In this document: positions 20,484-37,431 of the stretch, piece by piece
Position numbering within the stretch: position 1 is the stretch's first letter
Layout of the letters: each line of letters starts with the position of its first letter
From: Solirubrobacterales bacterium
Lineage (GTDB): Bacteria > Actinomycetota > Thermoleophilia > Solirubrobacterales > JACPNS01
Assembly (NCBI GenBank): GCA_051306435.1
Contig: JBPPNF010000012.1
Span: 1,908-65,907 of the forward strand
Length of the DNA: 64,000 bases
Direction: 5' to 3'
Notes under the pieces: model-generated
Told to the model about the DNA's origin: nothing
What the model saw: the letters and a program-made list of their open reading frames with translations, nothing else
The model's database searches: none
Program-made: the position numbers and the translations under genes

Positions 20484-20687
20484 CTAGAGCTTCTTGATTC
20501 CGACGGCCTTGGGACCCTTGTCCCCGGGCTCAACTTCGAACTCGACGCGTTCACCCTCGCTGAGTGAACGGAAGCCGTCCGAGAGGATCTCGGTGTGGTG
20601 GGCGAAGACGTCCTTGGAACCGTCTTCCGGGGCAATGAAGCCGAAGCCCTTGTCGTCGTTGAACCACTTGACTGTGCCAGTGGGCAT
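20484..20687 (-). CDS. cspA: Cold-shock protein
   Basis: [21 protein letters not shown]; AGGAG RBS. Confidence 0.97.
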
Positions 20688-21054: not shown

Positions 21055-21618
21055 TCAGGAATCATCCCCGCCGCCCGCTCCATCCAACCCGTGGAGCACC
21101 AACTGTTCGAGCAGTTCCGGCAGGTTCTCCGCTGAAGACACATCTCGCGGCCAATGAGCCACCGAGAGCAGCAAGCCGATCGCCGCATGCGCTGAGATGG
21201 CGAGTTCGGGCTCCGAGCGGTCAGGGAAGCAGCGATGCAACACCTCCACCCAACGCTCGACGTGACTTCGCTGACGCCGGTGCAGACGTTTTCGGGTGTC
21301 GCCGTCCAATGACCGATCCTCACGTGCGTAGACGGCGACGAGTTCGCGATGGTTCGCAACGAACCGAACCTGCGCGCGAATCAGGTGTTTCAACTCAACC
21401 CACGGATCGTCGTCCGGTGGTCCGGCAAGCTGCAGCAGCCGGTCCATCGCCTCGTCGAAGAGCGTCGTAAGAATCTCGTCCTTGCCGCGAAAGTGCCGAT
21501 AGATCGCCGGCCCGGTAACTCCCGCTGCGGCTCCAATTTCGTCAACACTGACCGCGTCAAATCCTCGTTCGACAAACAACCGCGAAGCGGCATCAAGGAT
21601 TGCGCGGTCCCGATCCAT
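21055..21618 (-). CDS. TetR-family regulator (divergent from MBL-P450)
   Basis: ILDAASRLFVERGFDAVSVDEIGAAAGVTGPAIYRHF HTH. Confidence 0.93.
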   Translation of the reverse strand: MDRDRAILDAASRLFVERGFDAVSVDEIGAAAGVTGPAIYRHFRGKDEILTTLFDEAMDRLLQLAGPPDDDPWVELKHLIRAQVRFVANHRELVAVYAREDRSLDGDTRKRLHRRQRSHVERWVEVLHRCFPDRSEPELAISAHAAIGLLLSVAHWPRDVSSAENLPELLEQLVLHGLDGAGGGDDS

Positions 21619-21716: not shown

Positions 21717-22640
21717 ATGAATGAGGTCCGCCCAGATGTACCGCATTGGGACCAGCCGGCAGACGGCGTGTTCAGGTTGCGACTCCCGCTGGCGCTGGCG
21801 TCACCGGATCACATCAACTGCTACCTGCTCCGTGACCCTGATGGGGATGTGCTTGTCGACACGGGGATGATTGGTTCCGAAGACGCGCTCGATTTGTGTT
21901 TGGCTGAGATCGGTGCCAGACCGGACCGCGTTCTCGTAACTCACGGACACATCGATCATTGGGGCCTGGCCACCAGATTCGCCGACCGCATACTCGTGCA
22001 TCCGGCATGCAGCGACTCATTCAGTTTCATGGAGCAGACGAATGGCGCCGATCAGTCTGCAGACCCGGGTGGATCGCAATTTCCGTCGGAGATGGAGCGC
22101 GTGTTTTCACGCTACAGGCAGCAGGTGACGGGGGTTCCCGGTCGAGATTCGCTCGCAGAGGGCGACATGATAGGAGACTGGCGCGTGCTTTGGACTCCGG
22201 GGCATGCGCCGGGTCACGTGTGCTTGTTACGTGAAACTGACGGAGTGCTGATCGCCGGAGATCACCTGCTCCCGGGATTCACTCCCAACATTCAGCCCTC
22301 CACGCAACGTGAAGATGCTCTTTCGGACTACCTGGATTCGCTCAGCCGAATGCATGAAATCGATGTGCGGCTGGTTCTGCCCGGCCATGGCGAACCGTTC
22401 GCCGACGCGAGCGGCCGTGCCACCGAATTACTGGACCACCATGAAACGCGCCTGCAGATGCTTGAGAGCGCCCTCACGCAAGAGCCGACGACATTGGAAT
22501 CCTTGACCGCAGAGTTGTTCCGTTCCACCCCCGGCGCTGAGGACCGAATGCTCGCGTCGATGGAGACTTTCGCGCATCTCGAGTATTTGCGGTTGCGTGG
22601 AAGAGCGGATTCGAACACAGTCGGCGAGTGGTCAGGTTGA
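21717..22640 (+). CDS. Metallo-beta-lactamase-fold hydrolase
   Basis: THGHIDHWG (HxHxDH), GHAPGH, GDH, PGHG. Confidence 0.92.
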   Translation: MNEVRPDVPHWDQPADGVFRLRLPLALASPDHINCYLLRDPDGDVLVDTGMIGSEDALDLCLAEIGARPDRVLVTHGHIDHWGLATRFADRILVHPACSDSFSFMEQTNGADQSADPGGSQFPSEMERVFSRYRQQVTGVPGRDSLAEGDMIGDWRVLWTPGHAPGHVCLLRETDGVLIAGDHLLPGFTPNIQPSTQREDALSDYLDSLSRMHEIDVRLVLPGHGEPFADASGRATELLDHHETRLQMLESALTQEPTTLESLTAELFRSTPGAEDRMLASMETFAHLEYLRLRGRADSNTVGEWSG

Positions 22641-22739: not shown

Positions 22740-24146
22740 ATGAATCGCAAGAATCGTTCAGCCCTCTCTGCAATCGGCGCAGTCGGCGCAGGTTTGGTTT
22801 TGATCCGGCTTACGCGCGGCAACGCCACAGACACACGCACGAATGTGCCGGGACCCGGCGGCCCGCGCTGGCTGCAGACAGTTCATTTCTTGGCGCGTCC
22901 CACGTCATTTTTGGAGCGAAACCAGCGCAAACACGGAGACACGTTTGCCGGGCACCTTGCCGGACTCGGCCGCGGGAGGATGATCGTGGTGAGTGACCCT
23001 GCGACGATCGAGGAGGTGTTCAAATCCGATCCGTACGTCTTGCAGGCTGGGCGCGCGGCCGCCGGCACGATTACTCCGATCGCCGGCTCCAATTCCCTGC
23101 TCGTGTTGGACGCGCCGAAGCATCTCGAGGACCGCCGGTTGATGTCGCCGCCGTTCCACGGCGAGCGTATGCGAACTTACGAATCCGTGATGGTCGAGGA
23201 AACGCATCGATCAATGGCCGGATGGCCACACGGAGAACCGTTCGAGCTTCGCGAGAAAATGGCCGACATCACGCTCGATGTAATCCTCAGAGCAGTTTTC
23301 GGGATGGAACGGAGCGCGGCGTATGACGAGCTCCGCGCCGCGCTGCTGGCGATGGTCCAGAATGATTCCGCCGTAAGCCTCGGACTGATGGTTCCAGGAC
23401 TCCGCCGAGACATCGGGCCCTGGCGAAAATGGTCAGCTTTTGAGCGGGCGGTCGAACACGGGAACACGCTCATATTCGCGGAGATCGCTCGCCGACGCGA
23501 ATCCGATGAGATCTCCGACCGTGTCGACATCCTCTCGATGCTCATGGAAGCAGATCGTGAAGATGGCTCGAAGATGTCCGACCAGGAGTTGCGCGACGAA
23601 CTCATCACACTGCTGCTGGCAGGTCATGAAACAACGTCCACCGGGATGGCATGGACATTCGAACTGTTGTTCCGTCACCCCGAAGCGATGGAGAAACTAC
23701 GGGCGAGCATCCAGGACGGCGAGTCGGACTATCTGGAGGCCGTGATCTACGAGTCCTTGCGTCTGCGAACGGTCATACCGTTTGTTGCCCGCGTCGTGTC
23801 CCAGCCGACAACAATCGGTGGCTATGACTTGGAAATTGGCGACACTGTCGTGCCGGCCGTTCACCTCGTTCACCGCCGAGCAGATATTTACCCGGATCCA
23901 GAATCCTTTCGTCCTGAGAGATTCTTGAACACCAAGCCGGGCACGTACGAGTGGATCCCATTCGGTGGCGGAATGCGACGGTGCATCGGCGCGAGCTTCG
24001 CAACCTTTGAAATGAAGACGTTGATTCGTGAGATTCTCACGCACACGGAGCTTGCACCAGCGAGTTCGCGTCCGGAGCGAGTTCGCCGCCGCGCTTTTAC
24101 GCTGGTGCCGAATCACGGCACGATGACGATTCAGCGGGACATTTGA
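22740..24146 (+). CDS. Cytochrome P450
   Basis: AGHETT I-helix, ESLR (ExxR), PERF, FGGGMRRCIG heme-Cys. Confidence 0.97.
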   Translation: MNRKNRSALSAIGAVGAGLVLIRLTRGNATDTRTNVPGPGGPRWLQTVHFLARPTSFLERNQRKHGDTFAGHLAGLGRGRMIVVSDPATIEEVFKSDPYVLQAGRAAAGTITPIAGSNSLLVLDAPKHLEDRRLMSPPFHGERMRTYESVMVEETHRSMAGWPHGEPFELREKMADITLDVILRAVFGMERSAAYDELRAALLAMVQNDSAVSLGLMVPGLRRDIGPWRKWSAFERAVEHGNTLIFAEIARRRESDEISDRVDILSMLMEADREDGSKMSDQELRDELITLLLAGHETTSTGMAWTFELLFRHPEAMEKLRASIQDGESDYLEAVIYESLRLRTVIPFVARVVSQPTTIGGYDLEIGDTVVPAVHLVHRRADIYPDPESFRPERFLNTKPGTYEWIPFGGGMRRCIGASFATFEMKTLIREILTHTELAPASSRPERVRRRAFTLVPNHGTMTIQRDI

Positions 24147-24158
24147 AGCGACTCAGCT

Positions 24159-25400
24159 TTACGCCTGGCGAGTCGCGGTCTCGCCAGGTGAATCACCGGA
24201 GCCAAACTGGGCCAACACCTTTGCCCGCTTGCGGGGCAAGATGTTCGCGCGGGAGATATCGCCGTGATAATGCTCGATCACCCGCTTGTCCATCACGCGC
24301 CTCCAGACTGGCGGGAACAGGGCCAGGACGATCATTCCCGCATAGCCGGTGGGCAGATGGGGAGCCTCGTCGAAGCTGCGGAGTGCCTGGTAGCGACGGG
24401 TCGGGTGGGCATGATGATCGCTGTGGCGCTGCAGGTGATACAGAAACACGTTGGACGCGACGTTGTTGTTGTTCCAGCTGTGCGAAGGCATGCAACGCTC
24501 GAAACGCCCATCTTCCTTCTTCTGGCGAGCCAGTCCGTAGTGCTCAAGATAGTTGACGACCTCCAACAGGCTGAAGCCGAGCAGCCCCTGAAGTATGAGG
24601 TATGGCAGCACGACCCAGCCGAACACGGCGACAAGCGTTCCGAACAGCGCGATCGACATCAACCACGCATTGAGCAGATCGTTCTTGATCGTCCAGAACG
24701 ATGAACCGGTGCGCTTCAGCCGCTTGCTTTCAATCTCAATCGCCGAGCGCATACTGCCTGCCACCGTCCGCGGCCAGAATTCGTAGAAGTTCTCGCCAAA
24801 GCGCGAACTTGCCGGATCTTCTGGCGTCGCGACTCTCACGTGGTGGCCGCGATTGTGCTCGATGAAAAAGTGCCCGTAAAAAGTCTGGGCGAGAGCGATC
24901 TTGCTGAGCCACCGCTCAAGCGAATCACGTTTGTGTCCAAGTTCGTGGGCCGCATTGATGCCGAGGCCACCGATCGTACCGATTGTCAACGCGAGACCGA
25001 TGTCTGCGGCCGTCGAGAGGTCGCCGTACGCCCACATCCAGCAGGCAAAAATGAGTCCGGCAAACTGAAGCGGAATGAATCCGTAGGTGATCCATCGATA
25101 GTAAGGATCCTCTTCCAACCAGGCGAGCACGCTGTCTGGTGGATTCTTGGAATCTTCGCCGATGATCAAGTCGAGCAGTGGGAAGATCACAAAAAGCAGT
25201 GCCGGGCCGATGAACCAGAACGCGATCGAGCCGGTCAGTTCGACGAGTCCCCAGGCCACAAATGGTGCCAGAGGGATGATTGTGCCGAGAATCCACGCGT
25301 AGCGCTTCGGGTCCTTCCACGTGGCCGGGGTGAGTTCAACCGGATCATTCTCGTCACTGGCTGTGTACTCCAGATCAGACAGGCTCGACGTGCTGGGCAT
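24159..25400 (-). CDS. alkB: Alkane 1-monooxygenase (membrane di-iron hydroxylase)
   Basis: HELGHK, EHNRGHH, NYLEHYG (HYG motif), LQRHSDHHA; AAGGAG RBS before ATG 25400. Confidence 0.95.
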   Translation of the reverse strand: MPSTSSLSDLEYTASDENDPVELTPATWKDPKRYAWILGTIIPLAPFVAWGLVELTGSIAFWFIGPALLFVIFPLLDLIIGEDSKNPPDSVLAWLEEDPYYRWITYGFIPLQFAGLIFACWMWAYGDLSTAADIGLALTIGTIGGLGINAAHELGHKRDSLERWLSKIALAQTFYGHFFIEHNRGHHVRVATPEDPASSRFGENFYEFWPRTVAGSMRSAIEIESKRLKRTGSSFWTIKNDLLNAWLMSIALFGTLVAVFGWVVLPYLILQGLLGFSLLEVVNYLEHYGLARQKKEDGRFERCMPSHSWNNNNVASNVFLYHLQRHSDHHAHPTRRYQALRSFDEAPHLPTGYAGMIVLALFPPVWRRVMDKRVIEHYHGDISRANILPRKRAKVLAQFGSGDSPGETATRQA

Positions 25401-25669
25401 TATTTCGAACTCCTTGCGCATTTGGACAATGGGACCGGTGTGATCTTTTTCGAACGCACAATGCTTGGCTGCGAAAAACTGTTGAGCAGCTCAATTTCAG
25501 CGATGACTCTGGATTGGACGGATTCGGACTCAACGGGCAGTCGCTCAGAATCGCGGGTTGTTCTGGCGCTCGCTCAAAGCGACGGCTGGGAAATGCTTCA
25601 CCGTGCGTCCGTCATGATCAGCTTCCAGATTCAAATGTGTGCTACCCGTTAAGCCTGCATACACCCCGT

Positions 25670-25684
25670 TTTACATCGTGTCAA
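25670..25684. promoter_or_regulatory. Operator copy 1 (TTGACA-N3-TGTCAA) upstream of alkB
   Basis: TTTACA-TCG-TGTCAA, one mismatch. Confidence 0.65.
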
Positions 25685-25807: not shown

Positions 25808-26395
25808 TCAGATCGCGTTTGTCCAGACTTCGTAAAGGCCTTCGACCATTTCATCAGCGGACATGTCGTCGGGCGCGACCACGCGCAAATAACATGCGCG
25901 CTCCGTCATCCACACAAGTAGATAGGCCTTGGTTCGCGCCGCTTCGGCGGTCCCTCCATCAGCGACGATGCGGCCTTGGGTTGCAGTGATGAATCGATCT
26001 ATTATTTCGTGCCAAAGGCGCCGAATTTCGCCGTCGTACGTGGACGCCTCTACGACAGCACCCATTACCGGACCATGTTCGTCGTAGATTCGAACAACAT
26101 TCTCCATAGCTACGTGAAGGTCTTGTGGGTCACTCGCCCCACTCCACCAAACTTCGGCTTCATCAAACAACGAGCTCGCGACTCGGTGCACAATTGTGGC
26201 CAGAAGATCCCGCTTGTCGCGAAAGTAAAAGTAAAACGCGGTTCGCGTGCGGCCCGCGTGTTCGGCAATCCGGCCCACGCTCAGATCGGCAAAAGGTGAA
26301 CCCGCCGCAAGAAGCTGCTCTGTCGCAAGAATGAACGAATCTTCGACCTCGCTGCGCTGTTGATCGGTTTCGCTGCGGCGCGAAATTGTGCTCAT
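25808..26395 (-). CDS. TetR-family regulator, EthR-like
   Basis: ILATEQLL..ADLSVGRIAEHAGRTRTAFYFYF; C-terminal W..MTER resembles EthR; TAGGCT -10 seven nt before ATG. Confidence 0.92.
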   Translation of the reverse strand: MSTISRRSETDQQRSEVEDSFILATEQLLAAGSPFADLSVGRIAEHAGRTRTAFYFYFRDKRDLLATIVHRVASSLFDEAEVWWSGASDPQDLHVAMENVVRIYDEHGPVMGAVVEASTYDGEIRRLWHEIIDRFITATQGRIVADGGTAEAARTKAYLLVWMTERACYLRVVAPDDMSADEMVEGLYEVWTNAI

Positions 26396-26611: not shown

Positions 26612-27385
26612 CTACCGAACGCCGGCACCCATCGCATGAAATCCGCCGTCGACATGCACAATCTCGCCGGTGATGGCCCTCGCGTGGTCGGACATCAGAA
26701 AGCAGATTGTCGAGGCGACCGGCCCCGAGTCGCCAGGGTCCCAGCCAAGCGGCGCCTGCTCCGCCCAAGCGGCCGAAAGTTTGTTGAACCCCGCGATCCC
26801 TCCGGCTGCGGCGGTGTCGAGTGGTCCTGCCGCAACGAGATTCACCCGCGTGCCCCGTGGTCCAAGGTCACGCGCCAGGTACCGGGATGTCGACTCCAAC
26901 GCAGCCTTTGCCACGCCCATCCAGTCGTATGCCGGCCAGGCGACGGTGGCATCGAAGTCGAGCCCGACGAGGGAACCATTGCCCGGGGGGAAAAGCGGCG
27001 CGAGCGTCGCGCCGAGCGCTTTGAGCGAGAATGCGCTGACCGAGAATGCGTCGATCGCGGACGGCAAGGGCGTGGTCAGAAATTCTCCGCCAATTGCATC
27101 TTTCGGCGCGTAGGCGATCGCATGGAGCGCGGCGTCGAGCCCGCCCCAACTCGAACTCAGGTCGTCGGCGAGCGCCGCAAATGCGTCCTGGTCACGCACG
27201 TCGAGTTCGAAGATCTCAACTGGCGTTTCCAGCGCACGGGCAGTTCGTTCGGTCATCCGGCGCACTCGGCCAAAGCTGGTCAGAACTACTTCGGCTCCCA
27301 ATGACTGGGCAAGCCGCGCCGTCTCGAAGGCGATCGACTCACGGGTGACAACTCCCGTCAGAAGCACGCGTTTGCCGGCAATCAT
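26612..27385 (-). CDS. fabI: Enoyl-ACP reductase (InhA/FabI)
   Basis: TGVVTRESIAF, LHAIAYAP, YDWMGVAKAALES, AGPLDT, DGGFH. Confidence 0.93.
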   Translation of the reverse strand: MIAGKRVLLTGVVTRESIAFETARLAQSLGAEVVLTSFGRVRRMTERTARALETPVEIFELDVRDQDAFAALADDLSSSWGGLDAALHAIAYAPKDAIGGEFLTTPLPSAIDAFSVSAFSLKALGATLAPLFPPGNGSLVGLDFDATVAWPAYDWMGVAKAALESTSRYLARDLGPRGTRVNLVAAGPLDTAAAGGIAGFNKLSAAWAEQAPLGWDPGDSGPVASTICFLMSDHARAITGEIVHVDGGFHAMGAGVR

Positions 27386-27858
27386 CTGGACGCCTCGCGG
27401 TCTCGTTGCCAGATCAGATCAACCGAAGCGGAAGTCGTGCGCTTTTCGTTCTGATTTCTTATGTCGAGCGTGCAACTGACCAGCCCCGTGGCTTCGGAAA
27501 TCTCTCGGAGCTCAACGATTGTCCCGTGGACGGTGATCGTGTCCCCGAGGTACACCGGTCGTTTGAATGTTGCCTCGTTCACTCGTCGCATCGCGATCAC
27601 GCGTTCAGGGTCGAGCGGCAGCAATCCGAATGCATAAGAAAGGACAAGAAGCCCGTTGGCAATTCGCGAGCCGAAGATGCTTTGTCCCGCCCAGTTCGCG
27701 TCAGTGTGAACCGGGTGGCGATCTCCTGTCAGGTGCGAAAACATCACGACATCGGACTCCGTGACAGTTCTGCCAGGACTGTGAAAGCCCATGCCCGGCG
27801 ATAGCTGATCGAAGTACAGAGCAAACGACGAAGGCTCAAAGTGGAATGTTTCCGACAC
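27382..27858 (-). CDS. MaoC-like hot-dog dehydratase
   Basis: RTVTESDVVMFSHLTGDRHPVHTD, RIANG, FKRPVYLGDT. Confidence 0.88.
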   Translation of the reverse strand: MSETFHFEPSSFALYFDQLSPGMGFHSPGRTVTESDVVMFSHLTGDRHPVHTDANWAGQSIFGSRIANGLLVLSYAFGLLPLDPERVIAMRRVNEATFKRPVYLGDTITVHGTIVELREISEATGLVSCTLDIRNQNEKRTTSASVDLIWQRDREASR

Positions 27859-29287
27859 GCGCGGGTCCCTTCCTGGGGTTGCTGAAGAATTCGATGGCAC
27901 CGGCAATTCTTTCTCTGGTCGTGTGTGGCTCGATCACTTCGTCGATGTGACCGAGCGCAGCGGCTTTGCTCGCAGTCAGGTGTTCGCGCTGGTATTCGTC
28001 GCGTAGCTCGGCCTCTTTGGCCGGACCCTCGCTTCCGGCAGCTTCGATTTCTCGACGGTTGACGAGCTGCACAGCTGAGGTTGCGGACATCACGCCGATT
28101 TCGGCGGTTGGCCACGCCAGCGCGGTAGTCGCTCCCAGCGCCTTGGAGTTCATCGCGATGTAGGCACCGCCGAAGGCCTTGCGCAGAACGATCGTGAGCT
28201 TCGGGACGTCCGCCTCGGCGAATGCGTGGACGAGCTTCACTCCGCGTCGGATGATTCCGTTCGCCTCTTGAGCCTCACCCGGGAGGAATCCCGGGGTGTC
28301 CACGAGCACAACCAACGGAATCCCGAATGAATTGCATGTTCGTACGAACCGAGCTGCCTTCTCAGACGAATGCGAATCGAGTACGCCTCCGAGCCAGCGT
28401 GGTTGGTTGGCAACGAATCCGACCGAATGTCCGTTGACTCGCGCAAACCCGATTGAGATGTTTCGTGCCCAGAGCGGCTGGATCTCCAAAAATGTGCCGG
28501 GATCGACGAGCCGCTCGATAACGAGTCGAACGTCGTACACCTTTCGCGGGCTACGAGGCACCAGGAGCTCGACTCCGAACTGATCCTGGGGATCCCGAAC
28601 CGGAGGTGTGATCGGCACCTGAAGTCTCTCGAGCAGATCACGTGCATATGAAATCGCCTCAGCATCCGTCTCCGCAACATGGTGCGCCACGCCATTCTTG
28701 CTGTGAACGAGCGGGCCACCGAGTTGCTCTGCGGATATCTCCTCCCCCAGTGCCGCGCGCACGATTGCGGGGCCGGTGAGGAACATTCGCGCGTCGCGCG
28801 TGAGGACGACGAAATCCATCAATGCGGGCGAGTACGCGCCGCCGCCCGCTGCCGCGCCGGACACGACGGCGATCTGGGGAACTCGACCGGACATTGCAAC
28901 CTGATGACGGAACATCGCCGCATATCCGGCGAGCGAATCGATGCCCTCCTGGACTCGTGCGCCGGCGGATTCGATGATCGCGACGACCGGCTTGTCGGCT
29001 TTGTGAGCGCGTTCAAGATGCCTGGCGATCGTTTCGGCCTGCGCCGCACCGAGCGCGCCGGCCATGTACGACCTGTCCTGCGCATACGCGGCGACCGGTC
29101 GGCCGTTGCATTTTCCGATTGCGGCAACGACTCCGTCTCCGTCACTGGACTCGATCCCTGCGTTGCGCGAGCGCACGCGGGATCCAACGATCTGCATACT
29201 GCCCGAGTCGAAGAGGTGCTCGAGGCGCGTTATCGGAAGCCACGCAGTCTCTGCTTTGTTCGCCGCCGAGACCCGCATCACGCTCAC
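27836..29287 (-). CDS. Acyl-CoA carboxylase carboxyltransferase (beta) subunit
   Basis: GALG, SAGARVQEG, AAGGGAYSPA, DTPGFLPG, RKAFGGAY. Confidence 0.93.
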   Translation of the reverse strand: MSVMRVSAANKAETAWLPITRLEHLFDSGSMQIVGSRVRSRNAGIESSDGDGVVAAIGKCNGRPVAAYAQDRSYMAGALGAAQAETIARHLERAHKADKPVVAIIESAGARVQEGIDSLAGYAAMFRHQVAMSGRVPQIAVVSGAAAGGGAYSPALMDFVVLTRDARMFLTGPAIVRAALGEEISAEQLGGPLVHSKNGVAHHVAETDAEAISYARDLLERLQVPITPPVRDPQDQFGVELLVPRSPRKVYDVRLVIERLVDPGTFLEIQPLWARNISIGFARVNGHSVGFVANQPRWLGGVLDSHSSEKAARFVRTCNSFGIPLVVLVDTPGFLPGEAQEANGIIRRGVKLVHAFAEADVPKLTIVLRKAFGGAYIAMNSKALGATTALAWPTAEIGVMSATSAVQLVNRREIEAAGSEGPAKEAELRDEYQREHLTASKAAALGHIDEVIEPHTTRERIAGAIEFFSNPRKGPARVGNIPL

Positions 29288-30480
29288 GCCGCCAGGCACA
29301 ACACTGCATTGTGCCCACCGAATCCGAATGAGTTCGAGATTCCGTAGGCGAGAGGTTGGTCGGTTGCAAGCGCTTGAGGCTCGTTCGGAACATAGTTCAG
29401 ATCAAGACCCGGCTCCGGCTCGCGATAGTTGAGTGTTGGCGGGGCAACCCGTTGCTTGAGCGCTGAGATCGTTGCGACCGCTTCGACCGCCGCCGCGCCG
29501 CCGAGCAGGTGCCCAAGGCTCGATTTCAGCGATGAGACCGGCACGTCAGATCCACTCTCACCGAAGACCAACTTGATCGCGGTGGTTTCCGATCGATCGT
29601 TCAGCGGTGTAGATGTTCCGTGAGCATTCACGTAGTCGACCTGCTCCGTGACAAGAGACGCATCGGATATCGCGATCGACATCGCTCTACCTGCCGCAGT
29701 GCCCGCGGGGTCCGGGGCGGTGATGTGAAAAGCGTCGGTCGTCGCGCCGTAGCCGAGTAGAAAGCCGTAGATCGGTGCGCCGCGATCGATCGCCTTGTCT
29801 TCCCACTCGATCACGAGCGCGCCGGCGCCCTCTCCCATGACAAACCCGTCACGTTTTGCGTCGAACGGCCGCGAAATGCCAGACTCCGAGATCGCTCCCA
29901 TGGCCCGAAAACCTGCAGCCGCAAACTCACCGGTGGTCGATTCGCCTCCGCCGGTCACGAATGCGTCGGCGTCCCCAGCCTGGAGCAGACGCATTGCCAC
30001 TCCGATCGCCTGCGCGCTTGCGGCGCAGGCTGAAACGACTCCGTGGACCGGTCCGGTGAAATGCTCCCTCATGGCCACGGCGACCGGTCCAGCGTTCGGC
30101 ATCATCATCGGCACAGTCATCGGTGACACGCGACCGGGACCGAGTTCCCGATACACGTCGTGTTGTGCTTCAGTCGTGTCCAGGCCGCCGACGCCGGAGC
30201 CGATCACGCAGCCGATGCGATCCGCCGGATACGGCGCTTCGTCACGCCATCCCGCCATCTCAATCGCCTCTTCGGCTGCGGCGACGATCAGCTGCGTGGA
30301 CCGGTCAGTTCGCCGGACTTCTTTGCGGGTCATGACGTCCACAGGGTCGAAGTCGGCGCAGAGTGCGTCGGACTCTTCAATGCCGCTTCGGCCGGCGATC
30401 CAGCCGTCAAAAAGGGCGCGGCTGTTGTTGCCGAGCGAAGTGACCGCGCCCAGTCCAGTGATCGCAATGCGCCGCGTCAT
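29284..30480 (-). CDS. fabF: Beta-ketoacyl-ACP synthase II
   Basis: SACAAS (Cys), NAHGTSTPLND, LGHLLG, NSFGFGGHN. Confidence 0.95.
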   Translation of the reverse strand: MTRRIAITGLGAVTSLGNNSRALFDGWIAGRSGIEESDALCADFDPVDVMTRKEVRRTDRSTQLIVAAAEEAIEMAGWRDEAPYPADRIGCVIGSGVGGLDTTEAQHDVYRELGPGRVSPMTVPMMMPNAGPVAVAMREHFTGPVHGVVSACAASAQAIGVAMRLLQAGDADAFVTGGGESTTGEFAAAGFRAMGAISESGISRPFDAKRDGFVMGEGAGALVIEWEDKAIDRGAPIYGFLLGYGATTDAFHITAPDPAGTAAGRAMSIAISDASLVTEQVDYVNAHGTSTPLNDRSETTAIKLVFGESGSDVPVSSLKSSLGHLLGGAAAVEAVATISALKQRVAPPTLNYREPEPGLDLNYVPNEPQALATDQPLAYGISNSFGFGGHNAVLCLAA

Positions 30481-30731
30481 GAGGCCTTGCTGACGATGAA
30501 CTCCACTGCGTCGCCGATCGTGCGGAGACCCTCAAGCGCTTCGCCGCCAAATTTGATGTTGTGTTCGTCGCCGACTATCTGGGCGATCTCCACGAGATCG
30601 AGGGAGTCGACGTCAATTGACTCGAAGCTCGTCGACATCTCGAGCCCCATTGACTCAGTGTCAGGGGAGACTTCGACGATCGCGGCGATCACCTGGCTCA
30701 GGACTTCCGTACTCAGTGCTGTTTCGGGCAT
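30477..30731 (-). CDS. acpP: Acyl carrier protein
   Basis: DVDSLDLVEI phosphopantetheine Ser; acidic 84 aa. Confidence 0.92.
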   Translation of the reverse strand: MPETALSTEVLSQVIAAIVEVSPDTESMGLEMSTSFESIDVDSLDLVEIAQIVGDEHNIKFGGEALEGLRTIGDAVEFIVSKAS

Positions 30732-30749
30732 TGTGTTACCTCCGAGTTT

Positions 30750-31478
30750 TCAGGCGCTCAGCCCGCCGTCAACGACGAGCTCAGCTCCAGTTATGTATTT
30801 GGACGATTCCGATGTGAGAAATCCGATTGCGTCGGCGACCTCGCTCGCGGTTCCGAGCCGACGCATCGGAATGACGTTCGCCGCGCCGCTTGGGATATCG
30901 CTTGTCATGTCGGTCGCGATGAAGCCAGGAAGCACCGCGTTGACCGTGATGTTCTTACGCGCAACTTCGGCCGCGACGGTGCGCGTGAATCCGAGCAGCC
31001 CAGCTTTGGCCGCCGCGTAATTCGCCTGGCCGGGGTTCGCTTTGGGTCCGACCACGGACGCAACGTTCACGATTCGGCCCTCCCGGGCGCGAAGCATTCC
31101 TGGAAGCACCTGCCGGGTCAGCCTGAACGCTGCAGAGAGATTGGTCTCGACGACGCTGTCCCAGTCGCGGTCAGTCAACGTCATGGAAAGTCCGTCTGCG
31201 GTGATGCCGGCGTTGTTGACCAGTGCGCGCACCGGACCGTGTGCGGCGAGCTGCTCCAGCATTGCGCTGACGGCCGGCCCGTCGGTGACGTCGGCCGGGG
31301 CCGCGACCGCGTTTCCGCCGGATTCGCGAATCTTTGACAAAACCTGCTCTGCGGCCGCGGAGTCGGAGCGGTAGTTGACGGCGACGAACCAACCGGACTG
31401 CGAGAGCTTGATGGCGGTGGCTGCGCCAATGCCACGAGACGCACCGGTCACGAGCGCAACGCGCTTCGGCTCGTTCAT
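30750..31478 (-). CDS. fabG: 3-oxoacyl-ACP reductase
   Basis: TGASRGIG, NNAG, YAAAK, PGFIATDMT. Confidence 0.94.
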   Translation of the reverse strand: MNEPKRVALVTGASRGIGAATAIKLSQSGWFVAVNYRSDSAAAEQVLSKIRESGGNAVAAPADVTDGPAVSAMLEQLAAHGPVRALVNNAGITADGLSMTLTDRDWDSVVETNLSAAFRLTRQVLPGMLRAREGRIVNVASVVGPKANPGQANYAAAKAGLLGFTRTVAAEVARKNITVNAVLPGFIATDMTSDIPSGAANVIPMRRLGTASEVADAIGFLTSESSKYITGAELVVDGGLSA

Positions 31479-32476
31479 ACCGCGCTCCACTCGACGACCG
31501 TGCCGGCCCAGGTCAGGCCTGCGCCAAAAGCTGCAAGCAGAACGAGCGATCCATCGGGGATGCGCTCGTTCTGATTGAAGAGATCGAGGGTCAACGGCAT
31601 CGTCCCCGAGGAACTGTTGCCGTAGTCACGAATCGAATACATCACTCGTGACTCGTCGAGGCCGAGCTCAGCAATGACTGCTTCGAGCACACGCCCGTTC
31701 GCTTGATGGAAGAGGAAAAAGTCGATCTCGTCGAGCTCACAACCGAAGGCCTCCGCGGCCGAGACGGCAACTTCAGACATCCGCCGAACCGCCTCACGAA
31801 ATGTGTCGAGACCGCTCATCAGGATTTTTGGATCCGCAGCAGTCGCGGATGCGGTGATGAAATCGCCGTTTGCCCCGTCGCTGCCCATGATCACGGGGCC
31901 TATCCCTCTGGAGTCGTCCACCGCTTCCACAAGCGCGGCGCCGGCGGCGTCGGCAAACAAGCTCAGCGTGCCGCGGTCCTGGGGGTCAAGGAAGCGGGAC
32001 ATCACGTCCACCCCGACCACCAGTACGCGGTCCATCCGGCCTGACTCGATCACTGCCGCGGCGATGCCGATCGCTGATACCCATCCTGAGCACGCGGCAC
32101 CGACGTCGAGTGCACCCGCACTGCGGGCGCCCACGGCGCGGGCGATCAGTGGTGCGACGTTGGGCAGAAGTCGATCGGGTGAGATCGTTGAGACAAGCAC
32201 CAGATCGATCGATTCTGGCTCTGCGCCGGATGAAGCGATCGCCTCGCGAGAAGCAGCCGCGCCGAGGCTCGCCACAGTGTCATCGGCACCGGCAACTCGG
32301 CGTCGCTGGATACCGGTGCGCTTTTCGATCCACCCGGATTCAAGATTCAGCGCGTGCTCAATTGCGCCGTTTTCCACGATCGTTTCCGGCACTGAGTGGC
32401 CGAGCCCAGTGATTCCGGGGGTGGCCCGGTGGTTGGTCATCCGCGAAGGCGAGCTTGGGGGGGAGCCGTTAGTCAT
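31475..32476 (-). CDS. fabH: Beta-ketoacyl-ACP synthase III
   Basis: GAACSG (Cys), FHQAN (His), YGNSSS (Asn), FGAGLTW. Confidence 0.93.
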   Translation of the reverse strand: MTNGSPPSSPSRMTNHRATPGITGLGHSVPETIVENGAIEHALNLESGWIEKRTGIQRRRVAGADDTVASLGAAASREAIASSGAEPESIDLVLVSTISPDRLLPNVAPLIARAVGARSAGALDVGAACSGWVSAIGIAAAVIESGRMDRVLVVGVDVMSRFLDPQDRGTLSLFADAAGAALVEAVDDSRGIGPVIMGSDGANGDFITASATAADPKILMSGLDTFREAVRRMSEVAVSAAEAFGCELDEIDFFLFHQANGRVLEAVIAELGLDESRVMYSIRDYGNSSSGTMPLTLDLFNQNERIPDGSLVLLAAFGAGLTWAGTVVEWSAV

Positions 32477-32543
32477 CCTTCGAGATGAAAGCGGCGCTGT
32501 AGCCGAGAATTCTGATACCTGTCGCTAATGTTTTTTCGATTGT

Positions 32544-33746
32544 ATGGAATCTGGTGATAAAAACGCTTCAAGCGCCAGCGACGACCGCCCTTGGCACGAT
32601 CTTCCGCCAGAACTCGCCCCGTTTCTGGCCCAGGCCGGATCAACATTTGTAGCTGAGATGCTCTCGCAGTTCGAGACCGCGATTCCTGAGTTTTCTCGAC
32701 CGGACGACACTGAATTCGTTCGCAACCTTGAAGCCGCGCTCACCCAGGGTTTCGATGCGTTCGTAGGCCTGGTTTCCGGCGAGAACGAGGGCGTTATCGA
32801 TCCGGATCCCTATCGCGTCGCCGGCGCAGACGAGTTTCGCACGGGTCGTTCAATCTCCTCGCTTCAGTCGACGTATCGACTTGGCGGACGCGTGGCGTGG
32901 CGCCATGTGAGCGCTGCAGCCGTCGAGGGCGGCGCGCACGAGGACGTTCTGAGACCGCTTGCTGATGCATTGTTCGCGTTTGTTGATCAGCTCTGCCAGT
33001 TTTCGCTGGAGGGATATGCGGAAGCTGAGTCGGCGCAGTCGGACTCCGTCGGCGTTGCGCGGCGCAAGCTCTTTGACCTGCTGGTCACCGGTACATCACA
33101 TCCGAATCAGGCAGATTTTGCCGTGCGCGAGGCCAGATGGCGCGACTCAGGTTCGATCGCCGCGCTCGTTTTTGACTCCGATGCGCTCGCCGGTGTCGTG
33201 AACAGGCTTGACGCCGGGGTGTTGTACGGAACAATTTCTGGCGTCGGCTGCGTGCTTCTGCCCGACCCGAGCGGCCCTGGGCGGCGAGCCTTGCTCGATA
33301 CCGCGCTCAACGGGGTCAGTGCTGCGCTCGGTCCTGAATCGGACACGCATGATGCGAACCGATCGTTTCGCTGGGCCCACCAGGCGTGGTCGATGGTTGC
33401 ATCGGGCGAGCTGCCCACATCGAGCCCGTTGGTTGTGGACGAAGCGCTGGTCCCGCTCCTGTTGCGTTCGGATCGAGAACTCGTGGACCGCATCGTGCGA
33501 CTACGTCTGGCACCACTTTCTGAACTGCGGCCTGCCGTCGGCGCGCGGATGTCGGACACGCTTCTCTGCTGGCTGAGGCTCCACGGTGATCGCCGGGCGA
33601 TGGCCGAGGAACTTCATATTCACGTTCAGACGGTTGCCTACCGTGTCGCCCAGCTGCGCGAGATATTCGGCTCGGCGATGGATCGTCCGGATTCCCGGTT
33701 TGAGCTCGAGATCGCGTTGCGGTCAGTCGCACTGAGTGCTCCGTAG
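32544..33746 (+). CDS. PucR/CdaR-family regulator (FasR-like), divergent from the fab operon
   Basis: C-terminal HTH AEELHIHVQTVAYRVAQL; YRLGGRVAWR; placement next to fabH as for actinobacterial FasR. Confidence 0.9.
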   Translation: MESGDKNASSASDDRPWHDLPPELAPFLAQAGSTFVAEMLSQFETAIPEFSRPDDTEFVRNLEAALTQGFDAFVGLVSGENEGVIDPDPYRVAGADEFRTGRSISSLQSTYRLGGRVAWRHVSAAAVEGGAHEDVLRPLADALFAFVDQLCQFSLEGYAEAESAQSDSVGVARRKLFDLLVTGTSHPNQADFAVREARWRDSGSIAALVFDSDALAGVVNRLDAGVLYGTISGVGCVLLPDPSGPGRRALLDTALNGVSAALGPESDTHDANRSFRWAHQAWSMVASGELPTSSPLVVDEALVPLLLRSDRELVDRIVRLRLAPLSELRPAVGARMSDTLLCWLRLHGDRRAMAEELHIHVQTVAYRVAQLREIFGSAMDRPDSRFELEIALRSVALSAP

Positions 33747-33766
33747 GACGTAAGGCCGCCCACGGG

Positions 33767-34249
33767 CTATGCGTTTTCCATGTCTTTCCAGGAATACCAC
33801 GCGTCCGGCAACTCACTGCCGCCGCGCTCAAAATGTTCGACGGGCACTTCCAAGAACAGTGCGTGACAGTCCGCCAACACTGTTGCTCCATCGCTGATCC
33901 GCCCTGCGAGGTAGATCTTGCGACCATCGATCCGCTCGCACCAGGCCTCGACATCCAGGTCGCGGTCGAGGAAAGCCGGGGATCGAAAGTCCACAGTCAA
34001 GCTGGCAGTCACTGCCGGCCGGCGGAGGATCAACAGCATCGTGCCGAGCGCATCATCAAGTACTGTGGCGATCGCTCCGCCGTGAGCGATGCCGGGCGCG
34101 CCTTCCTGGCGACGATCGAGGCGGACCCGACCCTTGATCCGGTCGCCGTCAACGCGCAATTTCAATCCCATGCCGGCGGGGTTCTCAGGCCCGCAGCCCA
34201 GGCAATTCGGGTGGTGAGGCGGGATGCTTCCGTCTGCGAGCGGCTTCAC
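33767..34249 (-). CDS. PaaI-family thioesterase
   Basis: HHPNCLGCGPENPAG, GIAHGGAIATVLDD. Confidence 0.9.
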   Translation of the reverse strand: MKPLADGSIPPHHPNCLGCGPENPAGMGLKLRVDGDRIKGRVRLDRRQEGAPGIAHGGAIATVLDDALGTMLLILRRPAVTASLTVDFRSPAFLDRDLDVEAWCERIDGRKIYLAGRISDGATVLADCHALFLEVPVEHFERGGSELPDAWYSWKDMENA

Positions 34250-35280
34250 AGGCCATTCTCCAACAGACGGGCCATCGCGGCAACCCCATCCTGCTCAAGG
34301 CGGGCGATGTCGCGAACCACCTGACGCCCTGATTCGTGGTCAACGGCCTTGGCGCATTCCGCAAGCATCACCCACGCATCGGCCAGTTCATCGTATTTTT
34401 CTCCGACGCTGACAAGCGCGGGTTCTTCGAGCAGGTCGCCAAGATCATGCAGAAACTGCGCGTGAAGCGAACGAAACATGGCGCCGCCAGTTCCGGTCTT
34501 GACGATGAATATGTTCAGCCCCGCGAGCGCCTCGGGAAGATTCGACCCGAACAATTGCGGCCAATCCTGGTACGTCGCCGCAAAGTAATCGACCCCTTCC
34601 AATCCAGCCGCGCCTTTCATTCCGGCCAGCGCTTCCCCGCCACCCTGCATGTTGTCAAGCGCGCACTGAATCGCTGCTTTTCCGGCTTCCCTGGGGTCTC
34701 TCAGCCGATCAGGCCAGTCATAGACGAACGTCGTGTGACTGTTGGGGCCGGGAAATGAGTCGGAATTCCGCGCTCGCGCAAGCTCGGCAAGGCTGCAGGT
34801 CTGGATTTCCTCACGGTCATTGTCGGCCACGAAGGCCACGCCAGCTGATTCGTCGTAGCCGACGACAACCACATCGTGACGCGTGTTGTGCATTCGAACG
34901 TTGAGGTATTCGAGATGCTTGATGTCGGCCCAGACCATTGTGGGCCGGCCGGCGTCAAGCTCATTCTTCAAAATTGCCCAGCCCTCCGCAGGGTCGCTGG
35001 CCTCGCGGACCGTGAGTTCGATGCCCGTATGGATCGCAAAATCGCGCTCCATATCGGCTGTACGACCGACCAGGTAGAGCGGCGGATTGAAGTTTTCAAC
35101 CTCGACGTACAGAAATCCCAGCCCGCCGCCCAGGCCGAAAACCATCCCCTCGCTCAGAGTGCCGGCTCCGTAGTCGAGCCCGCGAAGCTCGAGGAGATCG
35201 CGAAGCGCTCCAGATCCGCAGTGGCCGGCCTTGCGGTGCGGGAAGGACGCTACTTGCGGGAAGTGTTGCTGCGTGGACAT
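34246..35280 (-). CDS. BtrH N-terminal domain / DUF4872 protein (papain-like Cys-His fold)
   Basis: HCGSGALRDLL, SEGMVFGLGGGLGF, HDVVVVGYDE, ADND. Confidence 0.8.
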   Translation of the reverse strand: MSTQQHFPQVASFPHRKAGHCGSGALRDLLELRGLDYGAGTLSEGMVFGLGGGLGFLYVEVENFNPPLYLVGRTADMERDFAIHTGIELTVREASDPAEGWAILKNELDAGRPTMVWADIKHLEYLNVRMHNTRHDVVVVGYDESAGVAFVADNDREEIQTCSLAELARARNSDSFPGPNSHTTFVYDWPDRLRDPREAGKAAIQCALDNMQGGGEALAGMKGAAGLEGVDYFAATYQDWPQLFGSNLPEALAGLNIFIVKTGTGGAMFRSLHAQFLHDLGDLLEEPALVSVGEKYDELADAWVMLAECAKAVDHESGRQVVRDIARLEQDGVAAMARLLENGL

Positions 35281-35303
35281 CGATGGCGGAGAATAGCCGA
35301 GGT

Positions 35304-35321
35304 GTTCACCAGATGGTGAAC
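35304..35321. promoter_or_regulatory. Putative TetR operator in the btrH-like/tetR divergent promoter
   Basis: GTTCACCA-GA-TGGTGAAC with perfect 8-bp arms. Confidence 0.7.
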
Positions 35322-35362
35322 CCGGCCGTCTCTGCGGCCATTTTCACGGTACGGTTGAGCAC

Positions 35363-35971
35363 GTGAATGTGACAGCCGCCAAGGAAACGTCGGAGCCGCT
35401 ACGCATCCTTGACGCCGCAATCGACGCGCTGGCCGAGTACGGATACGCGACTTGCTCGATGCAACGCATCGCCGATCACGCAGAAGTCGACAAGCGGATG
35501 CTCCACTACTACTTCGGCGACCGCAACAGCCTGATCGTTCAGGTTGCCGAGCGAGTCGGTGATCGCCTGCTGGCAGGATTCGAAAGCGCGGTTGAAGGCT
35601 TGTCAAGCCCCCCCGAGATCGTCGCCGCCAGCTTCGAATCGCTTTGGGAGAATGTGGTGTCGGAGCCGCGGCTCCACGCCGTGCACTTGTGTCTCGTGTC
35701 TGCGGCCGTAACTGATGATTCGCTTCGTCTGCAAGTTGCGCGCATTCGTGATCGCTACTCCGAGCTCATTCTGGAACTCGCTGCGAGGGCTCGCAAGGCA
35801 GGTTTGGCGTTTCGTCTGAATGACGAAACTCTCGTCGGCCTGACCATGGCTGGTCTCAACGGTCTGACCGTCGATTACCTGCAGCGCGGCGAAACCGAAG
35901 AATTGACCCAGTCGTTGGCCGAGTTTCAATCCTGGTTGATGCAACTGGCAAGGCCGCCGGCTGACTCATGA
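35363..35971 (+). CDS. TetR-family regulator
   Basis: ILDAAIDALAEYGYATCSMQRIADHAEVDKRMLHYYF. Confidence 0.92.
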   Translation: MNVTAAKETSEPLRILDAAIDALAEYGYATCSMQRIADHAEVDKRMLHYYFGDRNSLIVQVAERVGDRLLAGFESAVEGLSSPPEIVAASFESLWENVVSEPRLHAVHLCLVSAAVTDDSLRLQVARIRDRYSELILELAARARKAGLAFRLNDETLVGLTMAGLNGLTVDYLQRGETEELTQSLAEFQSWLMQLARPPADS

Positions 35972-36080: not shown

Positions 36081-36986
36081 GTGGCCAATCTTCTCGAACT
36101 CACCAGCCAGGGCGATGTCGGCACGATCAGCGATGAATCGAAACTGGCAAACATCGAACTACAGCAGCCCCAGCAACTTTACGAACTTTGGGAACGTCAG
36201 CCGTGGTCGGCTCACGAGATCGACCTCAGCCAGGACGTCGAAGACTGGAAGAAGTTCCCGGAGTCCGAAAAGGGAGATGTAATCTGGGGCCTCTCCTCGT
36301 TCTTCGTGGGCGAAGAACGCGTAACCACTCAGTTCTCCGGGTTGGTCATGGCGTACGAAGATCAGTCCGAAGAGGCTTTCCTCACGACGCAGCAGGTTGA
36401 CGAAGCTCGTCACACTCAGTTCTTCGCTCGGTACTACGAAGATGTGTTCAGCATCGGCAACGGCATCGAAGCGCAGCTTGCGCGTGTGCGAGAGGACGTC
36501 AACGAGGGTTTCCTCGAGTTGTTCGACGTACACCTCGTGAACGCTTGCAAGCAGCTCGTTGATCATCCTGATGACATGGAAGCCAAGGTCGACTTCGTCA
36601 CGACTTACCACATGATCATCGAAGGCACGCTCGCGCTGACCGGGCAGTTCTTCATCACTGATTTCTTCGAGCAGCGCGGAGTGATGCCGGGATTCGTTGA
36701 CGGATTCAAGAAGATCAGTCAGGATGAGCATCGGCACGTCGCTTATGGGACCTGGTTTCTCAAAGAGGCCTGTAAAGACCCGGCCCTCGCCAGCCGCATG
36801 CAGGCCAAATTGGCCGAGCTCCTGCCGATTGCCGCAACGGTACTGGTCCCCAAGGGCCAGGATCCCTTCGGTGACTGGACGCTTCTTGGCTACGACTCGG
36901 CGAAGGTGAATGAGTTTGCGTTCACCGCGTTGTCGCGCCGCCTCCGCGTTATCGGTGTGGGCCTCCCGGAGGTCGCACCGGCATGA
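36081..36986 (+). CDS. R2-like ligand-binding oxidase (R2lox; ferritin-like dimetal enzyme)
   Basis: GEERVT, DEARH, YHMIIEG, DEHRH match R2lox GEEAVT/EEAKH/YNxxxEG/DExRH, including the cross-link Val and Tyr. Confidence 0.85.
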
Positions 36987-37183
36987 GCCCCTCAGAAACC
37001 ATCGCTGAGTCAGCAACGTCTCAGATATGGATCTGCGAACCGTGCGGGATGATCTATGACCCGGTCGATGGAGATCCCGACGGAGGCATTCCACCAGGAA
37101 CACCGTTTGAAAGCGTTCCCGACACATGGTTGTGTCCCGTGTGCGGCGCGCGCAAGCGCGAGTTTGTTCCATACGTGGACTGA
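36983..37183 (+). CDS. Rubredoxin
   Basis: [34 protein letters not shown]; ATGA overlap with R2lox. Confidence 0.95.
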
Positions 37184-37355: not shown

Positions 37356-37431
37356 TGGTGGAGCCAGACGGTTTCGAACCGACGACCTCCTGCTTGCAAA
37401 GCAGGCGCTCTACCAGCTGAGCTATGGCCCC
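37356..37431 (-). tRNA. tRNA-Ala (anticodon TGC)
   Basis: GGGGCCATAGCTCAGCTGGTAGAGCGCCTGCTTTGCAAGCAGGAGGTCGTCGGTTCGAAACCGTCTGGCTCCACCA, 76 nt with CCA. Confidence 0.97.

Follow-up and report, generated by a model that had tools for sequence, protein, structure and literature searches.

A stretch of 64,000 nucleotides from contig C12 of a 2.3-Mb, 96%-complete metagenome-assembled genome (MAG; G000) of a Solirubrobacterales bacterium, referred to below as the window, carries a compact operon for a type II fatty acid synthase (FAS-II) next to a gene pair encoding a BtrH-like acyltransferase and a thioesterase. Do these genes together constitute a dedicated pathway for a specialised lipid, as an initial annotation of the sequence had proposed? 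We give a probability of about 70% to another answer, namely that the operon is an accessory second copy of a FAS-II that is typical of the order and is the sole FAS in other families, and that the BtrH-like and thioesterase genes belong to an independent module. The nearest named relatives of the source genome are Thermoleophilaceae/Solirubrobacterales MAGs; comparisons were made within a genus set of 15 genomes and an order-wide set of 41 genomes. Gene calls rest on Pfam and NCBIfam profiles with subfamily cut-offs, and all coordinates are window positions.

Genes of the cluster

The cluster consists of the following genes, the seven FAS-II genes being listed in operon order (ACP, acyl carrier protein; KAS, 3-ketoacyl-ACP synthase).

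31475..32476, minus strand: fabH (KAS III); Pfam ACP_syn_III and ACP_syn_III_C; NCBIfam PRK09352, 320 bits against a cut-off of 249
30750..31490, minus strand: fabG (3-oxoacyl-ACP reductase); adh_short, E 1.9e-57; NCBIfam FabG subfamily above its cut-off
30477..30731, minus strand: acp (second ACP); PP-binding; DSL phosphopantetheine site within ...DVDSLDLVEI...
29284..30480, minus strand: fabF (KAS II); ketoacyl-synt N and C domains; NCBIfam PRK07314, 435.8 bits against 387
27836..29299, minus strand: accD-like acyl-CoA carboxylase carboxyltransferase (beta) subunit; Carboxyl_trans, E 6e-136
27382..27906, minus strand: MaoC-type (R)-hydratase/dehydratase; MaoC_dehydratas, E 2e-20; Asp/His hydratase motif present
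26612..27385, minus strand: fabI (enoyl-ACP reductase), last gene of the operon; NCBIfam FabI equivalog PRK07889, 345.6 bits against 299
32544..33746, plus strand: PucR-type regulator, divergent from fabH; HTH_30, RsbRD_N and PucR-like_N
33767..34249, minus strand: hot-dog (4HBT/PaaI, THEM4-like) thioesterase; Pfam 4HBT; solved relatives THEM4 and THEM5
34246..35280, minus strand: BtrH-like protein; BtrH_N, E 9.5e-42, and DUF4872, E 1.4e-29
35363..35971, plus strand: TetR regulator; TetR_N; divergent from the BtrH-like gene

Adjacent genes of the cluster either overlap by 4-16 nt (16 nt between fabH, the first gene of the operon, and fabG; 4 bp between the thioesterase and BtrH-like genes) or have no more than 43 nt between them. 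The start of maoC is uncertain, lying at 27906 in the longest open reading frame and at 27792 in other gene calls. A spacer of 68 bp separates fabH from the PucR gene. The profile searches agreed with the initial annotation on the named genes, their tight packing, the divergent PucR gene and the coupled BtrH-like/thioesterase pair with its TetR, and also on an AT-richer codon usage, since GC content at third codon positions is 0.69-0.76 in the cluster and about 0.8-0.9 in the flanks. Promoter and terminator sites predicted between 25.4 and 36.2 kb were no more numerous than in shuffled sequence. Both junctions of the FAS block (thioesterase/PucR and FabI/TetR) were found again in independent single-run assemblies, and the arrangement is therefore neither a chimera of the MAG nor a binning artefact.

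The window operon is a second FAS-II

When the cluster proteins were searched against the whole genome with tblastn, a second set was detected on contig C6, in the order fabD-fabH-fabG-acp-fabF-fabI, followed downstream by ftsE, ftsX and genes for a Ctp protease and RNase R. The paralogous proteins of the window and of C6 share 37-59% identity (FabH 37%, ACP 45%, FabI 59%). A locus of the C6 type is present in 15/15 genomes of the genus at 70-97% identity, and its flanks are conserved where they were examined (G007 and G001). FabF of the window type was found in two of the 15 only, the source genome and G001, which makes the window operon accessory. These results show that it is a second FAS-II and that the C6 locus is the primary one, in agreement with what had been proposed for the window.

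It is equally true that the cluster has neither fabD nor a biotin carboxylase gene: the single genomic copies lie on C6, within the primary locus, and on C40, respectively. The label "self-contained" was inaccurate for this reason, as FabD, the biotin carboxylase-biotin carboxyl carrier protein (BC-BCCP) subunit and the phosphopantetheinyl transferase (PPTase) are all encoded outside the cluster. The elongation cycle itself is complete in the operon. FabG and FabI score above their cut-offs, MaoC carries its Asp/His motif, and the active sites of both ketosynthases are intact (Cys/His/Asn in FabH, Cys-His-His in FabF); catalytic motifs are likewise present in the ACP and in the BtrH-like protein. 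Between the source genome and G001, dN/dS is 0.05-0.13 for the seven operon genes and PucR, and 0.07-0.21 for the primary genes. Judged by these ratios and motifs, the extra operon is intact and under purifying selection.

A dehydratase gene is missing from the primary fab locus. The enzyme for the primary FAS-II may be encoded elsewhere in the genome, by two neighbouring MaoC-domain genes (G000:C5:32074-32819) that resemble HadA/HadB. When primary fab loci were compared between families with a replacement in situ in mind, no flanks were shared, a result that speaks neither for nor against such a replacement.

The operon has the architecture of primary loci in sister families

In sister families the sole FabF-type gene lies in an operon of the form fabD-fabH-fabG-acp-fabF-accD-(maoC)-fabI. 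This pattern covers G016, G017, G023, G026, G034, G035, G037 and G039 as well as named Conexibacter and Solirubrobacterales MAGs. From fabH through fabI, the window operon agrees with this pattern in gene content and order, and its proteins are 45-66% identical to those of the sister-family operons. Maximum-likelihood trees of FabF and of concatenated FabH, FabG, FabF and FabI gave a consistent picture. In both, the window and G001 sequences form a pair (support 100/100) that falls inside the clade of sister-family primary loci (100/99), and the genus's own primary loci form a separate clade. The stem that leads to this pair is long, at 0.7-1.2 substitutions per site.

The window operon differs from the sister-family operons in that it has neither fabD nor the GDSL hydrolase gene that may stand between accD and maoC, and in that it has gained PucR, a long branch and the status of an island-borne extra copy. 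The hydrolase gene belongs to a further feature of the sister-family primary operons, an extra gene of about 190 codons between accD and maoC (L095 12362-12940 in G026; also L094, L096-L098 and L108). Its G026 product is a hydrolase of the GDSL/SGNH type that may be an acyl-ACP thioesterase like TesA, and the G023 gene at the same position has no Pfam match.

The use of accD and of a MaoC-type dehydratase had been read as signs of specialisation. Compared with the primary FAS of the lineage, there is nothing distinctive in this gene content, since sister families have both genes in their only FAS-II operon. No FabA or FabZ was found anywhere in the genome, which has five MaoC genes, including the Had-like pair mentioned above. 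A FAS-II operon with accD and a MaoC dehydratase is thus a housekeeping design in the Thermoleophilia and should not be taken as the mark of a specialised lipid cluster.

The closest solved homologues of the window AccD are of the PccB/AccD5/AccD6 type. Where PccB has Asp422, the window protein has Ile, which we take, from work on PccB/AccB specificity, to be tied to acetyl-CoA acceptance; the subunit would then contribute to malonyl-CoA supply. A methylmalonyl-CoA decarboxylase was also considered for this gene and rejected, the NCBIfam mmdA score (465 bits) being far below the cut-off (999) and the gene being fixed in primary FAS-II operons.

The PucR regulator

In G001 and in a third lineage, from metagenomes (L140), the PucR gene is again found with the operon, and homologues of 50-54% identity are divergent to fabD-acp-fabF-maoC-fabI clusters. 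By its conserved position, the regulator is assigned to the FAS operon. Relatives of it also flank fatty-acid desaturase genes. Its domains are an RsbRD_N globin-type sensor, PucR-like_N and HTH_30.

A regulator of similar build is known from mycobacteria, in which MabR, a PucR-type activator upstream of fabD-acpM-kasA-kasB-accD6, senses long-chain acyl-CoAs (PMC11617747, PMC5541348), and structures of MabR domains have been deposited in the PDB (PMC11617747). A phmmer search of the PDB with the window PucR (E <= 0.01) gave no match, the solved MabR domains included. The resemblance would therefore be one of domain architecture only, and a MabR-like action of the window regulator is proposed by analogy.

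The two operons can be compared further. As in the M. tuberculosis mabR/fas-II operon, a PucR-family regulator with a sensor and HTH_30 stands immediately upstream of FAS-II genes in the window; an AccD-type beta subunit is encoded inside the operon, and dehydration depends on a hot-dog enzyme of the MaoC/Had type and not on FabZ. Unlike the mycobacterial operon, that of the window has no fabD and holds FabH, FabG, the dehydratase and FabI all in one unit; moreover, it encodes the second FAS-II of the cell and not the main one. Unlike M. tuberculosis, the source organism is not known to make mycolic acids.

The BtrH-like protein has the fold of carrier-protein-dependent ligases

A sequence search of the PDB with the BtrH-like protein gave no match, and a fold search was therefore needed. 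Its AlphaFold (AF2) model has a pLDDT of 91. Foldseek matched this model over its full length to AziU3/U2, CtaG and CcbD (E 3e-11 to 1e-7), with TM-scores of 0.55-0.64 to entries 8gs1, 9qvj and 7yn1; one of the CcbD entries is a complex with a peptidyl carrier protein (PCP) domain. Four residues (C21, H135, D153 and D155) are invariant in 34 BtrH-like homologues, with a spacing like that of CtaG C11/H128/D144, and could supply a Cys-His-Asp triad. CtaG, CcbD, AziU3/U2, BtrH and AsbE have recently been grouped into a class of papain-like Cys-His-Asp ligases whose acyl donors are carrier proteins (PMC12865890). Dialkylresorcinol clusters with ACP and ketosynthase genes are another setting in which BtrH-like genes are found (PMC3949708), and the window protein has a weak match to NCBIfam DarH.

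The window protein thus shares with the CtaG/CcbD/BtrH/AsbE transacylases a BtrH_N papain-like domain, a C-terminal helical domain and the invariant Cys, His and Asp. It differs from the solved CtaG/CcbD-type members in sequence, being only 12-17% identical to them, and from the class in gene context, as its conserved neighbours include no gene for a carrier protein, an adenylating enzyme or any other biosynthetic step. In view of these structural matches, the earlier proposal of a carrier protein as acyl donor makes enzymological sense. Chemically, the enzyme might plausibly draw on the extra ACP nearby, but conservation does not support this link.

BtrH-like, thioesterase and TetR genes form a module of their own

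The BtrH-like gene is present in 8/15 genomes of the genus. In the seven genus genomes examined, the BtrH-like, thioesterase and TetR genes always adjoin R2lox(-rubredoxin), a gene for a di-metal oxidase with its rubredoxin, and only in the source genome do they adjoin the FAS operon. Six relatives have thioesterase, BtrH-like, TetR and R2lox genes with no adjacent FAS; five genomes (G002, G004, G007, G012 and G014) share the order thioesterase-BtrH, TetR-R2lox-rubredoxin-P450 and AlkB-TetR. The extra FAS occurs in just one other genome, G001, where R2lox, TetR, BtrH-like and thioesterase genes are on one contig, with no PucR fragment beyond the thioesterase, and PucR with the FAS operon is on another, between VWA/AHSA1/HTH genes and thiamine genes. 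BtrH-like orthologues of about 60% identity are common across the Solirubrobacterales, where TetR is kept and the thioesterase sometimes. No carrier protein gene was found beside the orthologues in genus relatives or in distant Solirubrobacterales. The extra ACP lies 3.5 kb from the BtrH-like gene in the source genome only. On these neighbourhoods, the BtrH-like/thioesterase/TetR trio is predicted to be an autonomous module whose partner in the genus is R2lox-rubredoxin and not FAS.

The initial annotation had suggested that acyl chains made by the extra FAS are off-loaded by the BtrH-like enzyme or the thioesterase, and had named a lack of co-conservation as evidence to the contrary. The BtrH-like gene is not co-conserved with the FAS, as the six relatives show, and the off-loading proposal fails on this point. 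The arrangement in G001 and the orthologues that have TetR and no carrier protein speak against it as well. In the window itself, the PucR gene lies antisense between the thioesterase gene and fabH, so that co-transcription is unlikely and the two sets are expected to be separate transcription units.

TetR with BtrH_N/DUF4872 and with or without a thioesterase (window 34246-35971; L134 and L135) is often found near flavin-containing monooxygenase (FMO), short-chain dehydrogenase/reductase (SDR), desaturase or R2lox genes, and this set looks like an orphan module of a thiotemplated ligase. Such a carrier-less module would be a widespread representative of the newly recognised thiotemplated ligase class. 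Here it stands beside lipid oxygenases and not inside a natural-product cluster.

The cluster lies in a genomic island with lipid oxygenase genes

The other features of the region are listed below; the five genes of the left part of the island were called with Pfam.

20484..20687: cold-shock gene, left border of the island
21055..21618, minus strand: TetR, left part of the island
21717..22640, plus strand: metallo-beta-lactamase (MBL) fold protein, left part
22740..24146, plus strand: P450, left part
24159..25421, minus strand: AlkB, left part
25808..26395, minus strand: EthR-like TetR, left part
36081..37183, plus strand (the direction of the TetR at 35363..35971): R2lox-like di-metal oxidase and rubredoxin; Ribonuc_red_sm and Rubredoxin
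37356..37431, minus strand: tRNA-Ala(TGC), called by ARAGORN, 3' end towards the island; 97-100% conserved in G007 and G004

Between the cold-shock gene and tRNA-Ala, an island of 16 kb (about 20.9-37.3 kb) contains, from left to right, genes for TetR, the MBL-fold protein, P450, AlkB and TetR, the seven FAS genes, and those for PucR, thioesterase, BtrH-like protein, TetR, R2lox and rubredoxin. The distance between the two border genes is 16.7 kb in the source genome and about 1 kb, on a single contig, in G007 and G004. In five relatives a contig break falls at this site, which suggests that it is hypervariable. GC content is 60.5% in the island and 64.5% in the genome. For the oxygenase and BtrH-like genes of the island, identity to the G002 and G007 counterparts is only 81-94%, as against 96-97% for the primary FabF of the same genomes, and these values suggest that the island had a different origin. 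None of the island genes was found to encode an integrase or transposase domain. Copies of the tRNA-Ala end that could be att-type repeats, and long repeats in direct or inverted orientation at the borders, were found at chance level only.

In relatives, the P450-AlkB-TetR block directly follows R2lox-rubredoxin. An operator-like palindrome, TTGACA-N3-TGTCAA, is present at 25670, 26420 and 36023, upstream of AlkB, of its EthR-like TetR and of R2lox; six matches with at most two mismatches were counted where 1.1 are expected. Neither fabH nor the BtrH-like gene has a copy upstream of it. On contigs C12, C24 and C32, this 2.3-Mb genome encodes three P450s and four AlkB paralogues with mutual identities of 69-71%, a set that fits an alkane-using lifestyle.

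Weighing the possible roles of the locus

The reading that we prefer is the accessory copy beside an independent module. The operon itself encodes FabH for initiation, the full elongation cycle, its own ACP and the carboxyltransferase beta subunit, and in this reading it would borrow FabD, the single BC-BCCP alpha subunit and the PPTase from the housekeeping set. The divergent PucR would switch it, by analogy with MabR, and the product may be a second supply of ordinary acyl-ACPs under separate regulation, destined for membrane or storage lipids and perhaps different in starter or chain-length preference. The island would also have collected an alkane/lipid oxidation module (AlkB, P450 and R2lox-rubredoxin), and the adjacency of the BtrH-like/thioesterase pair to the FAS would be an outcome of island assembly. 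Four points weigh against this interpretation. The BtrH-like protein is modelled with the fold of a carrier-protein-dependent transacylase, and the nearest carrier protein in the genome is the extra ACP; the BtrH-like/thioesterase pair is present in both genomes with the extra FAS, an apparent association that is not significant (2/2 against a background of 8/15, p about 0.27); the long stem of the accessory pair could reflect a changed function and not only an unsampled donor; and the extra operon may have been under-counted, as MAGs are incomplete and islands bin poorly. There is also a bolder version, which we regard as a long shot: island assembly in this lineage would have wired a spare FAS-II to an orphan transacylase of the carrier-protein-dependent kind, so that a particular acyl chain passes from the extra ACP through the BtrH-like Cys-His-Asp enzyme to an amide- or ester-linked lipid, the thioesterase editing or releasing chains and AlkB, P450 or R2lox possibly modifying them. 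If true, this wiring would be a pathway caught during its assembly.

The model of the initial annotation, in which a dedicated acyl-ACP made by the extra FAS is transferred by the BtrH-like enzyme or released by the thioesterase and then oxidised by AlkB, P450 or R2lox to a specialised lipid, draws on the adjacency of the two sets in this genome, seen in four independent assemblies, on their joint presence in both extra-FAS genomes, on the fold and invariant Cys/His/Asp shared with enzymes that take acyl groups from carriers (PMC12865890), and on the dialkylresorcinol clusters (PMC3949708) with the weak DarH match. We consider it unlikely, given that FAS and BtrH-like genes lie on different contigs of G001, each among unrelated neighbours, that six genus genomes keep the BtrH-like/thioesterase pair without the extra FAS, that distant BtrH-like orthologues have no carrier protein nearby, that the FAS architecture is the one found in primary loci elsewhere in the order, and that antisense PucR splits the transcription units, which have no common operator. 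Of the "specialised lipid cluster", then, the second and accessory FAS-II stands; the signs of specialisation are order-typical. Nor is a pathway at the level of the island much favoured, in which the extra FAS would work with AlkB, P450 and R2lox-rubredoxin, for example in the elongation of alkane-derived acids or in making hydroxy-acid, wax or storage lipids, with no role for the BtrH-like protein. All its genes lie within one 16-kb island, and the number of AlkB paralogues and the desaturase neighbours of PucR relatives would suit it; however, the oxygenase module occurs without FAS in six relatives, the FAS of G001 has no oxygenases nearby and the operators differ, which together make it very unlikely. 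Finally, the operon might be a relic, an ancestral order-type FAS-II that was displaced in the genus by another FAS-II lineage and is now being lost with little present function. Its place in the clade of the order's primary loci, the loss of fabD and of the GDSL hydrolase gene found in some of those loci, and a divergence between the source genome and G001 similar to that of core genes are all compatible with this idea. Strong purifying selection and the lack of any broken gene contradict it, and so does the position: a low-GC, tRNA-adjacent island that is absent at the same site in relatives, with another context in G001, is not an ancestral location. We find a relic hardly credible. In our view, the locus as a whole does not represent a new lipid pathway but a rather unremarkable set of accessory genes, and it indicates that a nearly complete FAS operon with its own regulator can act as a flexible, island-borne set in genomes as small as 2.3 Mb.

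FAS genes elsewhere in the genus and the order

Another extra set, fabH-fabF-accD, was observed in G006 (L101, G006:C11, 7802-11605). Its FabF is 58% identical to the primary FabF of the genus and is sister to the genus primaries in the FabF tree. Eleven of the 41 order genomes, including all seven of family f2, gave no FabF-like match at E <= 1e-40; the FAS of these genomes may be very divergent or of another type.

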